A stretch of 44,976 nt of DNA from an uncultured Lachnoclostridium sp. (GCA_947305875.1 CAMZEW010000001.1:1-44976), one strand, 5' to 3'. Positions 10,283 through 43,186 are shown, numbered from the stretch's first letter. Numbers and translations: made by a program. The notes: a model not told the origin generated them from the sequence alone.

Positions 10283-10356
10283 GTCCACGTAGCTCAGCAG
10301 GATAGAGCGACCGCCTCCTAAGCGGTAGGTCGGAGGTTCAAATCCCCTCGTGGACG
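10283..10356 (+). tRNA. tRNA-Arg (anticodon CCT)
   Basis: Manual cloverleaf. Acceptor stem GTCCACG/CGTGGAC with discriminator G. D arm GCTC-AGCAGGATA-GAGC. Anticodon arm ACCGC-CTCCTAA-GCGGT. T arm GGAGG-TTCAAAT-CCCCT with one A-C mismatch. No encoded CCA. Confidence 0.85.
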
Positions 10357-38495: not shown

Positions 38496-38555
38496 AATAT
38501 TTACTAATAAATGTACGCTACGGTGGTATGTCATTTACGCAAACCGGGGATAGGT

Positions 38556-41213
38556 ATGGGAGATTTCAATTGGAACGGGCTCTTCACAAGATGGAAGCCC
38601 GGTAAGAAGCTGTTCGTTTATTACGGACAGAGCACAACTGAAGACGGCCAGAAGAAGCCCGCCCGGCTCACCGGCAAGTCCTACCGAAAAGCAGGTCTTC
38701 CGGATGACGTTTTGCAGGCGATAGACGGGATTAAGAAAAAGCGCTACACGCTTTTTGAGAACGCGCAGCGTCTGTCAAAGGTTCTCGAGAAGCGTACTGT
38801 CGGAAAGGACAGTCTGGCATCGCTCGTAAACAAGGGCATTATCGCAGGCGTTTCCGACCTGCATGCGTTCCGTTCGTTCATCTGGACGACGGGGGATTAC
38901 CTGAAGCGCACGGGGGCGGAATACGATCGCCTTTCCATCGGGGAACTGACGGCGATTGCGAAGGCCGTGGAAGACGCCGGGTATCTGAATTACCGCGGCG
39001 GTTCTTACTTCCCGGGGCTTTGCAGCACGCCTGATAAGAATATATACTTCCTTCCGTCCGGACTGAACCGCGAGCTTCGTGAGAAGGCGGCGGCGGACGG
39101 CGCGGTTGTCGCCTCGCTGAACCGGGCGCGCAAGGACCTGACGCGGATTAAGCCGGTTATGGAGAATCTCGCGATGGAGCTTTTCGCCGGAACCGCCGGT
39201 GAGAAGACCGAGTTCTTCGAGACGGTGCTTTCCGTCTGGTGCTCACTCGCGATTCTGTCGAAGGAACCGTTCTTCCTGACGGACGGTAAGAAGCCCGTTA
39301 CGAATGCCGAGCCGAAGAAGGCTGCGAAGGCACCCGAGCCTGTGAAGGATATTACGGCCGATGCGAAGACTGAGAAGAAAGAAGCCGTAGCGACCGAAAC
39401 CAAGAAGTCCGAGAAGCCTGCCGCGAAGAAAGCGGAGCCGAAGAAGGCTGACAAGCCGGCAGCGAAGGCAGAAAAGGCCGAGGCGAAAACGGAAAAACCC
39501 GTGAAGGCCGGGGCGAAGAAGGCTGACAAGCCCGCAGCAAAGGCAACCGCTGAGAAGAAGGCTGAGAAACCTGCAGCCGCCGGGACGAAAGCCGCCGAGA
39601 CGGAGAAACCCGTGAAGGCTGAGAAGAAGCCCGCCGCGAAGGCAACTGCCGAGATGAAGGCAGAGAAAACTGCAGCGAAGAAGGCCGAGCCGAAGAAGAC
39701 GGATAAGACGGCTAAGAAAGCCGAGACGAAACCAGCTGAGAAGAAAACCGAGAAGACCCCTGAGAAGACAGCCAAGATAGAAAAACCGGCGAAACCCGCC
39801 GGCAAGACCGCGAAGACGGCCAAGGAAACGAAGGCAGCGAAGAAGCCTTCGAAGCCGAAGCAGCCCGAGCCGCAGCCGACCGAGAATTACATGGTTGCGG
39901 AAGTGGACGGCGAGATGGTCCGGATTCCGATCGGAGACGCGTACAAAGAGGAAACACTTGAAATGCTGTCAAAAAGTTCCATTCCCGAGGCGGTTCTGGC
40001 AGACGCGAAGAAGATTCTGCCGAGACTGTCCGAGATGGGCGGCGAGGTCGACATTCAATATCTATCAAAACGATTAAATGAGTTACAGGAGGATGGTATG
40101 GCTAACAATGATCCCGGAAGAGAAAGAACGGTAGAGGAGCTGATTGCGGAGCTGATGGGCACCGCGCAGCAGCCGAAAGCGGCAGCCCCTGCCCCTGAAC
40201 CTGCCCCGGCACCTGCACCGGCACCCGCGCCGGTGAAAGAAGAGGTAAAGCCTGCCCCGGCACCCTCACCCGTTGAACCCGAGTGGGAAGTGTCCACCAA
40301 CAGCGCAATCAAAAATGATATCGAGCCGGAGTGGGAGGTTTCCCTCGTGAATCCTGCCGCAGCCGTTAAGCCCGCAGCACCCGCTCCTGCGCCGGTTGCA
40401 CCCGCACCCGCAGCAGAGCCCGTGAAGCCCGCAGCGCCTACTCCTGAGGATATTGCAGCCAACGCTGTAATCCCCGAGATTCTGCCTTATATTGCTCCCG
40501 AGCCGGAAGCAGCTCCCGCACCCGCTCAGAAGGTTCCGACTCCCGAAGAGATTGCTGCAAGCGCAGCAAGCCTTGAGAGCCTCTTCCCTTCCTTCACCGC
40601 ACCTGCAGCCGAGGAAGTTAAGCCCGTTGAGCCCGCACCCGTGATTCCCGAGCCTGTGGTAATCCCCGAGCCCGCACCGGTTATTCCGGAACCCGCTCCG
40701 GTTATCCCTGAGCCGACGCCGGTTGTTCCCGCTCCCGAGCCGGTGAAGCCGGTCAGCAGTATCCCGGACATCACTCCGGACGGTGTAAAGCCTGCCGCTA
40801 CCCCGATTGAGACGAACGAAACCAGCAAGGAAGAGATGGACGAGCATGAGGCAGCCGTACGCCGCCGTATGCGTGAGATTCTCGAGCAGAACAAGAAGAA
40901 GCAGCAGGAGAAGGACGAAGTCCGCAGACAGATGGAAGAGCGTCGTCTCGAGGTTGCGAGAAAGCAGGAACAGAGACGTCAGGAAATCCTTGCAAAGCGT
41001 AAAGCCGACTATGAGAAGCTTCTTGCCGAGCAGGAAGATCTTCGTAAGGTTGTGGAAGAGAACAAGAACGCCATCATGGGCGACCGTAAGAAGAAGCGTA
41101 CCGAAGCGCAGAGAAGAATCATGGATATTGAGGATATCATCCTGAAGGAATACCTTGATCTGAAGCGCGGCACGAACGATTATCATACCGGTCTAACGCA
41201 GGAGCTTTATTAA
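38556..41213 (+). CDS. Large hypothetical protein (885 aa). It has a globular N-domain, a Lys/Ala/Pro/Glu histone-H1-like repeat, a small middle domain, Pro/Ala-rich repeats and a charged coiled coil.
   Basis: Long uninterrupted ORF with no TM segment or signal peptide. The start is taken at ATG 38556 (MGDFNWNG...). I recognise no family. Confidence 0.75.
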   Translation: MGDFNWNGLFTRWKPGKKLFVYYGQSTTEDGQKKPARLTGKSYRKAGLPDDVLQAIDGIKKKRYTLFENAQRLSKVLEKRTVGKDSLASLVNKGIIAGVSDLHAFRSFIWTTGDYLKRTGAEYDRLSIGELTAIAKAVEDAGYLNYRGGSYFPGLCSTPDKNIYFLPSGLNRELREKAAADGAVVASLNRARKDLTRIKPVMENLAMELFAGTAGEKTEFFETVLSVWCSLAILSKEPFFLTDGKKPVTNAEPKKAAKAPEPVKDITADAKTEKKEAVATETKKSEKPAAKKAEPKKADKPAAKAEKAEAKTEKPVKAGAKKADKPAAKATAEKKAEKPAAAGTKAAETEKPVKAEKKPAAKATAEMKAEKTAAKKAEPKKTDKTAKKAETKPAEKKTEKTPEKTAKIEKPAKPAGKTAKTAKETKAAKKPSKPKQPEPQPTENYMVAEVDGEMVRIPIGDAYKEETLEMLSKSSIPEAVLADAKKILPRLSEMGGEVDIQYLSKRLNELQEDGMANNDPGRERTVEELIAELMGTAQQPKAAAPAPEPAPAPAPAPAPVKEEVKPAPAPSPVEPEWEVSTNSAIKNDIEPEWEVSLVNPAAAVKPAAPAPAPVAPAPAAEPVKPAAPTPEDIAANAVIPEILPYIAPEPEAAPAPAQKVPTPEEIAASAASLESLFPSFTAPAAEEVKPVEPAPVIPEPVVIPEPAPVIPEPAPVIPEPTPVVPAPEPVKPVSSIPDITPDGVKPAATPIETNETSKEEMDEHEAAVRRRMREILEQNKKKQQEKDEVRRQMEERRLEVARKQEQRRQEILAKRKADYEKLLAEQEDLRKVVEENKNAIMGDRKKKRTEAQRRIMDIEDIILKEYLDLKRGTNDYHTGLTQELY
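39285..39880 (+). repeat. Intragenic degenerate tandem repeats encoding (A/E)KK(A/T)EKPAAK-type units
   Basis: Recurrent DNA strings gccgagccgaagaaggc and gaagaaggctgacaagcc(c/g)gcagc. The antisense ORF 39005-39823 is a compositional shadow. Confidence 0.8.
40168..40815 (+). repeat. Intragenic Pro/Ala-rich repeat region. It contains a (AP)n run, duplicated EPEWEVS units, and four VIPEPAP-type units at 40637-40750.
   Basis: Read directly from the translation and from the 21-nt DNA periodicity. Confidence 0.8.
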
Positions 41214-41242: not shown

Positions 41243-41764
41243 ATGGGTATTTTTGATAAGATCATGAACTCCATCTTCAACGAAACGAAGAAGGCTGTTG
41301 ATTCGGTTGTTACTCCCGGTAAGAAGCCGGCGGCAACGCCCGCTCCCACGCCTGCCCCGCAGGCAGCTGCTCCGGTTGTGAATACCCCCGCTGCGGATCC
41401 CGATGCCGAGCGGATCTACCGCGAAGACGGCGGTTATGATTTCAATGACAGCTTCCATCGTGACGCGGCATACTTCCGGAACATTCTGGTAAAGAATTTC
41501 CCGGACTGGAGCCTTGAAGAGAACGTTCCGATTACCCGCATCGATGCGAGCGCGCATCCGAAATGCATTCCGGTAACGTTTATGATGAGCAAAACCGGAC
41601 AGAACTTCGCATTTTTCGTAATGCCGATCAACAAGACGAACGGACTTCCTTATAAGGGATCCAAGCAGGCATTGAAGGCAGCCGGAATCAAGACCGTGCA
41701 TTGCATCGAATGCTACAAGAACGAAGAAAGTTATGTGGTGAACCGTATCCGGAACGCCATGTAA
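41243..41764 (+). CDS. Hypothetical 173-aa protein with an amphipathic N-terminal helix, a Pro/Ala linker and a roughly 115-aa alpha/beta C-domain
   Basis: AAGGAGG SD 7 nt upstream of the ATG and a 29-nt gap after the 885-aa gene. I recognise no family. Confidence 0.75.
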   Translation: MGIFDKIMNSIFNETKKAVDSVVTPGKKPAATPAPTPAPQAAAPVVNTPAADPDAERIYREDGGYDFNDSFHRDAAYFRNILVKNFPDWSLEENVPITRIDASAHPKCIPVTFMMSKTGQNFAFFVMPINKTNGLPYKGSKQALKAAGIKTVHCIECYKNEESYVVNRIRNAM

Positions 41765-41925
41765 TACAGGTCTTTGACCGAGTCGGATAGGGAAGAACGC
41801 ACATGGATGCACCTGCAGGGGGCGCAGCATAACCATCAAAACGGTTTTGCAGGTAGCCGGTTATGTATCGCCCGGTATAGCAAAATTGCTATTTTAAAGC
41901 ACTTCTTCTCTAACCATAAGAGTAA

Positions 41926-41957
41926 AGGAGGCCCCGCTTGCGGGAGACCTCCTTTTT
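41926..41957 (+). promoter_or_regulatory. Hairpin plus U-run that overlaps the RT ribosome-binding site and candidate TTG start (attenuator or translational-control element)
   Basis: AGGAGG(41926-31)-C-CCCG-cttg-CGGG-aga-CCTCCT(41948-53) followed by TTTTT. The 5' arm is the only SD for the RT gene. Confidence 0.6.
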
Positions 41958-43182
41958 ATCGGATTATATGATGGATTTTTTGGAAACCATCGGCGACGGC
42001 AGTCAGTGGGAACGGTTCTACGAGTACTGCAAAGCCGGGGAACACGCAACGAAACAGGAACTCTCGGAACTGCGGCAGTTTATCGACTGCGGCAGTTTTT
42101 TGACGTGGGACGGACACTTCCGTTCAGGGAAGCCCTTCCCGTATGCGGAAAGGACGGTTCTTAACAAGAAAGGAACCGATAAGAAGCGCGTTGTCTATAT
42201 GTTTCCGGGCGAGGCGGGGATTGTCCTTAAGTATCTTTCCTACCGGCTGCATGAGTATGACGGCATCTTCTCGGACAATCTGTTCTCGTTCCGCGTGAAC
42301 CGCGGCGTGAAGAAGGCGGTCGGGGATTTGCTTTCCGTGCCGGGGCTTTCGGAGAAGTACGTGTATAAGCTTGATATTCACGATTATTTCAATTCGGTCG
42401 ACGTCGAGCGGATCATTCCGCTGATTGAGCGGGTGCTCGGGGCGGAGCAGCCGCGGTTCTGCGGTTTCCTGAAGGAATTTCTACGGAATCCCTACGTGAC
42501 GGACGGCGGGAAGATCATTGAAGACCGGAAGGGCATCATGGCCGGCAATTCGCTGTCCTCATTTCTCGCAAATCTGTACCTTTCGGACATGGACCGGTAC
42601 TTCTCGGAGCAAGGGGCCGTCTACGCGCGCTACTCGGACGACATCATCGTGATGGCGGATACGTACGAGGAACTTGAGCAGTACCGCGAGGAGATTCTTA
42701 CAAGGCTTTCCGACAAGGATATGACCGTCAACCCGAAGAAGGTGTTCTATGCAAAGCCCGGCGAGCCGTGGGATTTCCTCGGAATCACCTTCCATGCGGG
42801 CAAGGTTGACGTGGCGCGGGCATCGGTTGAGAAGATGAAGGGGAAGATCCGCCGCAAGGCGCGGGCGCTGTACCGCTGGAAGGTTAAGAAGGGCGCGTCC
42901 GACGAGCAGGCAATCCGCGCGTACATCCGGCATTTCAACCGCAAATTCTACGACAACCCGAACAAAAGCGAGCTCACCTGGTGCCGCTGGTTCTTCCCGG
43001 TCATCAACACCGACGAGAGCCTTAAGGAACTGGACGCGTACCTTCTTGAGAACATCCGCTTCCTTGCGACCGGCAGGCACACGAAAGCCAACTACCGCCT
43101 GCGTTACGAGACAATCAAGGACTACGGTTTCCGAAGCCTTGTGCACGAATACTACGCAATTGCAAACGCCCCGTCGATGTGA
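41938..43182 (+). CDS. Stand-alone reverse transcriptase (RT palm/fingers plus a thumb-like tail; no other domain)
   Basis: Motifs RT1-7 are all present in order, with the catalytic YSDD at 42631-42642. The start is either TTG 41938 (SD at 6-nt spacing, but inside the hairpin) or ATG 41968 (no SD). Confidence 0.88.
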   Translation: MRETSFLSDYMMDFLETIGDGSQWERFYEYCKAGEHATKQELSELRQFIDCGSFLTWDGHFRSGKPFPYAERTVLNKKGTDKKRVVYMFPGEAGIVLKYLSYRLHEYDGIFSDNLFSFRVNRGVKKAVGDLLSVPGLSEKYVYKLDIHDYFNSVDVERIIPLIERVLGAEQPRFCGFLKEFLRNPYVTDGGKIIEDRKGIMAGNSLSSFLANLYLSDMDRYFSEQGAVYARYSDDIIVMADTYEELEQYREEILTRLSDKDMTVNPKKVFYAKPGEPWDFLGITFHAGKVDVARASVEKMKGKIRRKARALYRWKVKKGASDEQAIRAYIRHFNRKFYDNPNKSELTWCRWFFPVINTDESLKELDAYLLENIRFLATGRHTKANYRLRYETIKDYGFRSLVHEYYAIANAPSM

Positions 43183-43186
43183 TAAA

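Follow-up and report, generated by a model that had tools for sequence, protein, structure and literature searches.

The UG26 reverse transcriptases (RTs) were described from 35 members, in Class 2 of the UG/Abi groups; nine of the 35 adjoined a COG2852 or Vsr-like protein (cluster 1531), and no non-coding RNA (ncRNA) was reported for the group (Mestre et al. 2022, PMC9226505). The motifs RT-1 to RT-19 were described as occurring near RT genes, and roles in retrons or diversity-generating retroelements (DGRs) were speculated for them (Weinberg et al. 2017, PMC5737381). Both descriptions bear on the 44,976 nucleotides (nt) of DNA from an uncultured Lachnoclostridium sp. analysed here (GCA_947305875.1, CAMZEW010000001.1:1-44976; the whole stretch is called the window), in which the locus under study is almost certainly a chromosomal module of three parts, i.e. 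a gene for a small partner protein, an RT-5 RNA, and a UG26 RT.

Among the characterised Class 2 UG RTs, the adjacent ncRNA acts as scaffold and as template for iterative reverse transcription (10.64898/2026.05.04.722794; 10.1101/2025.10.16.682844; PMC12483538), and the products polymerised by Class 2 DRTs are ncRNA-templated (10.64898/2026.05.04.722794; 10.1101/2025.10.16.682844). DRT2 assembles a gene by rolling-circle copying, and DRT10 adds repeats in a telomerase-like manner on an A-B-A′ template and has a SLATT membrane effector. In DRT9, a U-tract templates poly-dA, which is primed by the C-terminal tyrosines in ...SLNYDYE (PMC12483538). Each Class 2 UG RT studied so far has in this way written DNA unexpectedly, by gene assembly (DRT2), as protein-primed poly-dA (DRT9), or as telomerase-like repeats (DRT10), and that Class 2 RTs would carry ncRNAs was already expected by specialists. 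The sister group UG26, unstudied as yet, becomes directly testable through the list of its parts (partner, RNA helices, RT start) and through the link of an orphan Rfam motif to an enzyme.

As the RT family was catalogued in 2022 and the RNA motif in 2017, the novelty of the locus is lower than was implied by an earlier reading of the window, made by a model from the sequence alone (the sequence-only reading). New are the link between UG26 and RT-5 and the extended form of this RNA with its outer helix P0 and its pseudoknot, although the pseudoknot may already be marked in Rfam's own annotation.

Assignment of the reverse transcriptase to UG26

The open reading frame (ORF) at 41938..43182 (+) is real, and its translation carries, in order, all seven RT motifs quoted in the sequence-only reading. 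RVT_1 was its sole Pfam domain (E 3.7e-22, amino acids (aa) 76-285), in agreement with the compact RT lacking a fused effector domain that had been proposed. The architecture is that of Class 2, an RT to which no known domain is fused (Pfam), and the 404-aa model superposes on RT, thumb and D regions.

Among the PADLOC profiles, RT_UG26 matched the RT over positions 1-396 of 398 (E 7.4e-161, 533 bits), and the runners-up were UG4 (116 bits), UG27 (107), UG17 (103) and Drt9 (97.9), with Drt2 at 65.7. Because the full-length match of 533 bits faces 116 bits for the next family, profile classification makes the RT unambiguously a typical member of the already catalogued (2022) UG26, where the sequence-only reading had held the family to be unassignable by eye. 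The RT fits the profile of the UG26 group of Mestre et al. 2022 (PMC9226505) end to end, and a fused domain is equally lacking; no difference was found at the RT level.

No NCBIfam model matched the RT at its cut-off. Rejected on these scores were a group II intron maturase (TIGR04416, 108.2 bits against a cut-off of 300), the DRT2 RT (NF041746, 58.7 against 390), Drt3a (77 against 200), and the retron RTs (NF038233 (St85), 56 against 235; Ec67, 11 against 450). No intron family reached the Rfam threshold anywhere in the window, and the ORF is flanked by only about 200 nt upstream and 4 nt downstream. For a DGR, no pair of repeats resembling template and variable repeats (TR/VR) and involving the RT region was found within the 45-kb window, a VR elsewhere in the genome being possible. 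The earlier view that the RT belongs neither to a group II intron, nor to a retron, nor, on the evidence of the window, to a DGR was thus borne out, and DRT2/UG2, which had been chosen as the model of the layout, has to be replaced by UG26.

An alignment of 30 homologues (44-89% identity) has about 60 invariant columns, including Y222, D224 and D225 of the Y[S/A]DD motif. With the catalytic motif and every other RT motif invariant, the RT is predicted from the alignment to be an active polymerase under purifying selection. The YSDD of motif RT5, called atypical in the sequence-only reading, is ordinary in a family in which Y[S/A]DD is invariant, and the GNSLSS variant of RT4 is indeed unusual, as a clade-specific Ser for Pro. 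In RT4 (AGNSLSS, window 42547-42552) this Ser takes the place of the Pro of AGxPxSS, the conservation of which is at least 90%, and it was seen in the window and its 88-89% identical relatives only.

The AlphaFold2 model of the RT (predicted local distance difference test, pLDDT, 92) was most similar to the group II intron RT GsI-IIC over its whole length (PDB 6AR1; template modelling score, TM-score, 0.75), followed by G2L4 (PDB 9D4S; 0.66), DRT9 (0.65) and retron RTs (0.43-0.47). Because the superposition on GsI-IIC extends over fingers, palm, thumb and D-like region, the C-terminal tail of about 125 aa, previously noticed as thumb-like, is modelled as a group-II-type thumb followed by a D-like region. 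UG26 differs from group II intron RTs by having no intron RNA, by the maturase score of 108 against 300 bits, and by its association with a partner protein and a small RNA of its own.

Both by sequence and by fold, the closest relatives outside the family were group II intron maturases and RT-Cas1 fusions, and group II maturases were also the nearest relatives of solved structure by sequence. This kinship could suggest that the locus is the decaying and functionless remnant of a group II intron or of another retroelement. There is, however, no intron RNA domain at Rfam thresholds, the element occurs as one copy per locus, and its ORFs are intact. The invariance of the RT over such a range of identities, the compensatory covariation of the RNA, and the conservation of the partner show purifying selection on all three parts, by which the idea of a remnant is effectively refuted.

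The RT start is more likely ATG 41968 or 41971 (404 aa) than TTG 41938 (414 aa), because the family alignment and the UG26 profile start at the MMDFLE position; the PADLOC profile match begins at aa 12 of the TTG-initiated ORF. TTG 41938 is preceded by a perfect Shine-Dalgarno sequence, AAAGGAGG, with a spacing of 6 nt, and both lie within a terminator-like hairpin. Database gene calls also differ on the RT start, some giving 414 aa (TTG) and others 404 aa (ATG).

RT-5 as the cognate RNA of UG26

In total, 186 UG26 loci were found among 185,579 species-representative genomes; 80 were fetched, and the counts given here refer to 81 loci (sources). In the window, Rfam RF03026 was matched at 41807..41906 with 81.9 bits (gathering score 45.7) over model positions 1-104 of 104, and this core ends 61 nt ahead of the RT start. 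The roughly 200 nt upstream of the RT, counted as flanking non-coding space in the sequence-only reading, are occupied, as the 203 nt at 41765-41967 hold a full-length RT-5 and a hairpin with a run of five U (hairpin-U5); the short downstream flank was correctly seen, provided that the next gene, for a homologue of the S11 D-Ala-D-Ala carboxypeptidase (Peptidase_S11), starts at ATG 43187, 4 nt (43183-43186) after the RT stop.

By Rfam scan, RT-5 was present upstream of the RT in 11/11 diverse UG26 loci. An extended covariance model (R1) scored 122.3 bits in the window and found exactly one copy in 76 of the 81 sources, and four of the five misses have lost the relevant flank at a contig end. 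RT-5 is thus the cognate RNA of UG26. A full-text search on the motif name returned no paper, i.e. the link is not stated in the searchable literature. The proposal of a UG/DRT-like RT following a structured ncRNA accordingly stands at the level of family (RT_UG26) and layout (Rfam RT-5). Compared with the RT-5 of Weinberg et al. 2017 (PMC5737381), an orphan motif near RT genes, the RNA is here tied specifically to UG26 and extended by P0, which is not paired in the Rfam model.

P0 is a helix of 8-10 base pairs, which RNAalifold predicted unprompted; its 5′ strand precedes the Rfam start by about 10-20 nt, and its 3′ strand follows the Rfam end. Among the 76 sequences, 94% of P0 was paired, and compensatory changes were found at 8/8 pairs. 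The helix is markedly asymmetric: purines make up 93% of the 5′ strand and pyrimidines 97% of the 3′ strand, covariation is almost only from A-U to G-C, and 543 standard pairs have the purine on the 5′ side against 19 in the opposite orientation. The eight alignment columns after P0 contain 63% T.

The pseudoknot joins the unpaired 5′ tail of the Rfam model to the loop of its hairpin P1, with pairing of 100% in 12 sequences and 99.1% in the 76, and with compensatory changes at 4/6 pairs. Over the whole RNA structure, 87% of the cells in the 76-sequence alignment were paired, against 41-52% after sliding the partners by 1-3 columns; this alignment was fitted to the covariance model and is so biased towards the modelled helices, the pseudoknot lying outside the model and P0 being seen on a MAFFT alignment as well. 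The observed covariation was attained in 0/500 shuffles. The minimum free energy (MFE) fold of the window RNA alone gave the same helices including P0 (-41.7 kcal/mol, z = -3.3).

Between the RNA and the RT, the terminator-like hairpin at 41924..41957 folds with -19.8 kcal/mol (z = -2.7); its 5′ arm is the Shine-Dalgarno sequence, and TTG 41938 is situated in the CUUG loop. According to this fold, translation from TTG 41938 would compete with formation of the hairpin. The hairpin is common to the window and its nearest relative (L001), and is not found in more distant loci, where the U-rich run after P0 takes this position.

The long-range P0, which joins the 5′ and 3′ ends of the RNA, and the conserved G and C residues just inside it are reminiscent of retrons. 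On a retron-like interpretation, P0 would represent the a1/a2 repeats, priming would proceed from the 2′-OH of the conserved G by the closing helix, and a branched multicopy single-stranded DNA (msDNA) would restrain the partner as an effector. The layout of RT, ncRNA and effector follows the same three-part logic, and participation in retrons was speculated for many of the RT motifs (Weinberg et al. 2017, PMC5737381). However, no long hairpin of msd type separates the closing helix from the recognition stem-loops, no retron RNA family of Rfam matched in the window, and the partner is of another type. Moreover, the RT is outside the retron clade, with the St85 score far below cut-off and the PADLOC retron-type models far under UG26, its motif RT7 lacks the retron signature, and its TM-scores to retron RTs fall short of those to group II RTs or DRT9. 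A retron-like element is therefore considered very unlikely.

A module of partner, RNA and RT

When the ORFs within 5 kb of the RT were clustered over the 81 loci, one conserved neighbour of about 180 aa emerged, which lies upstream on the same strand in 63/81 loci by clustering and in 64/81 by hidden Markov model (HMM). The RT is consequently not the orphan that had been assumed, since this partner is encoded directly upstream in the window, too. In the UG26 of Mestre et al. 2022 such a neighbour accompanied 9/35 members (26%), against 64/81 loci here, where the share of loci with the partner is put at about 85%. The distance from partner stop to RNA start was 0-103 nt in all 64 loci with the partner (64/64; median 12.5 nt). 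The RNA was directly upstream of the RT in 70/76 loci, with a median of 27 nt from RNA end to RT start.

The exceptions to this order keep the RNA next to the partner. In five loci (L023, L025, L026, L027, L032) the gene order is RT-partner-RNA, and in L042 the partner-RNA unit is on the opposite strand 3 kb away. The conserved unit is thus the partner followed by the RNA, usually with the RT next, and this near-universal unit is reported here for the first time. Because the RNA stays with the partner in the rearranged loci, it is not simply a 5′ leader of the RT; of the structured leader envisaged in the sequence-only reading, the structure was confirmed and the role as a simple RT leader was not.

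The same arrangement speaks against a purely cis-regulatory RNA, i.e. an attenuator, autoregulatory leader or 3′ untranslated region for expression of RT or partner, with the RT acting on another substrate. The position and short distance ahead of the RT in most loci would suit such a role, as would the terminator-like hairpin-U5 in the window and the U-rich tails elsewhere, the sequestering of a Shine-Dalgarno-like sequence by the hairpin, and the lack of a recognisable template in the RNA. Yet the rearranged loci have the RNA downstream of the partner and not upstream of the RT, and a pseudoknot of near-invariant sequence together with a strand-asymmetric closing helix exceeds a typical attenuator. 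In addition, the adjacent ncRNA is scaffold and template in every characterised Class 2 UG RT. Regulation in cis as the only function is hence regarded as unlikely. The coordinates of the module are compiled in Table 1.

Table 1. Components of the UG26 module and their positions in the window.
Feature	Coordinates	Strand	Properties and basis
Partner gene	41243..41764	+	173 aa; N-terminal amphipathic helix (MGIFDKIMNSIF...), low-complexity Pro/Ala linker, C-terminal domain of ~105 aa
Structured non-coding RNA, extended form of Rfam RF03026 'RT-5 RNA'	41783..41920	+	Rfam core 41807..41906
Outer helix P0, 5′ strand, purine-rich UAGGGAAGAA	41788..41797	+	RNAalifold, covariation, MFE fold; outside Rfam model
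Outer helix P0, 3′ strand, pyrimidine-rich UUCUUCUCUA	41903..41912	+	Same basis as 5′ strand; U-rich tail follows in most homologues
Pseudoknot 5′ strand ACCUGCA, within conserved YGCRCCUGCR	41811..41817	+	Pairs with 41848..41854
Pseudoknot 3′ strand UGCAGGU, apical loop of hairpin P1	41848..41854	+	Pairs with 41811..41817
Terminator-like hairpin GGAGGCCCCG-CUUG-CGGGAGACCUCC followed by U5, between RNA and RT start	41924..41957	+	Fold
UG26 reverse transcriptase gene	41968..43182	+	404 aa from ATG 41968 (414 aa from TTG 41938); PADLOC RT_UG26
RT layout	41968..43182	+	Fingers and palm with invariant Y[S/A]DD, group-II-type thumb, D-like C-terminal region, end ...SLVHEYY

The partner protein family

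An exhaustive profile search returned 664 cluster representatives of the partner family at E<=1e-3, which gives its real size, the word-indexed homology search having found 12-24 proteins only. No Pfam family, no significant relative of solved structure by sequence, and nothing meaningful in PHROGs was obtained for the partner. The PADLOC model RTasCOG2852 matched 6/22 family members (best E 3e-07), and because of these matches the family appears to correspond to the RT-associated COG2852-like protein (cluster 1531) of Mestre et al. 2022; the copy in the window itself does not reach the level of E 0.1 with RTasCOG2852 and is linked through the family profile alone.

The AlphaFold2 model of the partner is confident for aa 70-173 (pLDDT >90), with the topology alpha-beta-beta-beta-alpha-beta-alpha. 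The Foldseek matches were all to PD-(D/E)XK proteins, i.e. Hjc, TnsA, the restriction-like endonuclease domain of R2, Bax1, McrC and RecU. The catalytic D and (D/E)xK were not conserved in 224 sequences of the partner: the 'PD' position reads P-[Y/V]-[S/T], with Asp in 9%, and an acidic-x-Lys is missing from the next strand. In the same 224 sequences, N160, Y164 and R168 were conserved at 96-98%, all three on the same face of the last helix. On the basis of the model, we read the partner as a PD-(D/E)XK-like nuclease fold that would have been retained for binding and not for cutting.

The N-terminal helix is amphipathic with a hydrophobic moment of 0.50-0.52, and 146/171 partner representatives begin with M-[G/S]-hydrophobic-hydrophobic. 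A few relatives have transmembrane segments followed by K/R in place of this helix, or two transmembrane helices and a bacterial PH domain. Judged from these N-termini, membrane association looks like a property of the partner family. The putative dead active site and the predicted membrane targeting of the partner are both new here.

Fusions of the partner domain were observed in L092 (16-1446; P0155, three transmembrane segments, a zinc ribbon and two tandem partner domains) and in L091 (4001-4852; P0262, two transmembrane helices, a bacterial PH domain and a partner domain). Both P0155 and P0262 belong to canonical partner-RNA-RT modules, the RNAs of which scored 74 and 100 bits and the RTs of which are 40-42% identical to that of the window. 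Zinc ribbons occur in other members of the family as well (P0237, P0292, L028).

Proposed mechanism and its alternatives

The best explanation of the module, towards which we incline only slightly as a whole, is a mechanism of three steps. The partner mRNA and the RNA would be co-transcribed, and with transcripts ending behind P0 (in the clade of the window, behind the hairpin-U5), much RNA and little RT would result. The RT would then bind the folded RNA as a scaffold and reverse-transcribe a short stretch within it, giving a DNA that is possibly repetitive and possibly primed, in the manner of DRT9, by the conserved C-terminal tyrosines. Finally, the membrane-tethered partner would bind the nucleic-acid product or the RT-RNA complex and act as sensor or effector. 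With the characterised Class 2 systems taken as analogues, RT-5 is on balance expected to be both scaffold and template of the RT, and protein priming or a repetitive product, drawn from the same analogy, is rather doubtful. The most likely role would be phage defence by abortive infection, with a non-defence role conceivable; the chances of a defence function are, again by analogy, judged as even.

Of the named systems, DRT10 (UG17) is similar in having a Class 2 UG RT, an adjacent structured ncRNA of about 140 nt, and a membrane-associated third part (predicted for UG26). It differs by its RT group (RT_UG17, 103 bits with the RT of the window) and by its SLATT protein, where UG26 has a partner with a nuclease fold and an amphipathic helix; no Pfam or PADLOC SLATT model matched the partner. 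The variable template loop of DRT10, with its clear A-B-A′ pattern, was not found in the UG26 RNA. UG17 is also frequent in defence islands (10.1101/2025.10.16.682844), as opposed to UG26 in the neighbour scan described below.

DRT9 (UG28; PMC12483538; PMC12489045) likewise combines a Class 2 RT with an ncRNA encoded ahead of it, and the fold similarity (TM-score above) is complemented by two conserved C-terminal tyrosines after an SL..N-like string in both RT sequences. Membership in DRT9 is rejected on the PADLOC score (Drt9 97.9 bits against 533 for UG26) and on the lack of a universal poly-U in RT-5; a further difference is the length of the UG26 RT, which is about 95 aa shorter. The C-terminus of the UG26 homologues is conserved as ...SLV(N/H)xYY; in sequence and position it resembles the DRT9 priming tail ...SLNYDYE, and may be taken as a lead only.

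Several findings weigh against the proposed mechanism. As for the template, RT-5 has no conserved poly-U, the U-run before GCAGG in the P1 loop being variable (CUGUG, UCUUG, CCUUG). A stop-free circular frame of the Neo type was found in only 12-20 of 76 RNAs, counted on both strands, with and without P0, and with assumed template bounds; DRT2 (UG2), with its RT already below cut-off, was rejected on this lack of conservation too. A scan for A-B-A′ patterns gave two hot spots, the pyrimidine strand of P0 and a conserved GC.CCUGC. string overlapping the pseudoknot. Because the former is of low complexity and the latter is shared by descent and overlaps the pseudoknot, they are not independent evidence of a template. 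As for the partner, its Foldseek matches were weak (E 0.03-0.3; best 0.03 with probability 0.97) and none reached E<=0.001, one family member (P0148) has a lipoprotein-like signal, which ill suits a cytoplasmic nucleic-acid binder, and in about 11 loci whose flanks are intact, RNA and RT occur with no partner nearby, i.e. the partner is not obligatory in cis. As for defence, the association of UG26 with it was graded inconclusive earlier (Mestre et al. 2022, PMC9226505), no defence island was seen, no more than about 7 of the 130 neighbour proteins (~5%) matching any PADLOC model, and no true UG26 was found in phage, IMG/VR and plasmid collections, where only distant RTs of <31% identity occurred.

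These observations on genomic context are shared by a non-immune alternative, in which the RT serves housekeeping or DNA repair, like G2L4 in double-strand-break repair, and the Vsr/COG2852-like partner binds DNA as part of repair. Among the 130 nearest neighbours of 34 diverse loci, the proteins were of housekeeping type (tRNA synthetases, TrkAH, EF-G, P-type ATPases). In about 8-14 Lachnospiraceae species, with RT identities as low as 59-70%, the module is found at one conserved position, which the window shares, in the order P-type ATPase, 900-aa protein, module, and D-Ala-D-Ala carboxypeptidase. The similarity of the RT fold to group II intron RTs and G2L4 and the Vsr-like annotation of the partner cluster (Mestre et al. 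2022, PMC9226505) point in the same direction. On the other side, the distribution is very patchy across gut and rumen Bacillota and Bacteroidota, and the few loci found among the species representatives fit an accessory and horizontally transferred function. A partner devoid of nuclease catalytic residues and directed to the membrane would also be odd as a repair factor, and G2L4 is not known to have a dedicated structured RNA. A repair RT is, all in all, improbable.

Should the module prove to serve in defence, the system would be specific to gut and rumen anaerobes; otherwise, UG26 would represent a rare case in which a Class 2 RT and its RNA do something else in the cell. Two oddities stand out, the strand asymmetry of P0 across the family and the absence of a defence-island or mobile-element context. 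A more far-reaching and rather unlikely suggestion would make UG26 a mechanistic type of its own, the fourth among the Class 2 RT-ncRNA systems. On this view, the pseudoknot and the purine/pyrimidine P0 would form a telomerase-style template-boundary or triplex element, and short-repeat or strand-biased DNA primed from the C-terminal tyrosines would be read by the membrane-tethered, nuclease-dead PD-(D/E)XK partner. The system would work in gut and rumen anaerobes from stable sites on the chromosome, away from defence islands, and its role might not be classical phage defence.

Distribution and neighbouring genes

The UG26 loci were mostly from rumen or gut Lachnospiraceae, other Clostridia, Bacteroidales and Erysipelotrichaceae. 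Two loci (L020, L029) are from rumen metagenome-assembled genomes labelled as Deltaproteobacteria and Dehalococcoidales, all other loci being from gut or rumen Bacillota and Bacteroidota; mis-binning or horizontal transfer could account for these labels.

In a syntenic clade with TrkA-TrkH upstream, one locus (L033) has partner, RNA and RT, and two (L040, L046) are partnerless, with the RNA starting 45-76 nt after trkH. The latter two look like recent loss of the partner with RNA and RT left intact.

Downstream of the module, the D-Ala-D-Ala carboxypeptidase gene directly follows in about 8 related loci as it does in the window. Just upstream of the module, in about 9 Lachnospiraceae loci, is the gene for the 900-aa protein (window 38511-41213, +), which has no Pfam family. 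This protein consists of long K/A/E-rich repeats (AKKAEPKK-like), P/A/V-rich repeats (EPAPVIP-like), and a charged helical C-terminus. Besides RT-5, the only RNA family matched in the window was a tRNA gene at 10283-10356 (+; Rfam tRNA, 64 bits).

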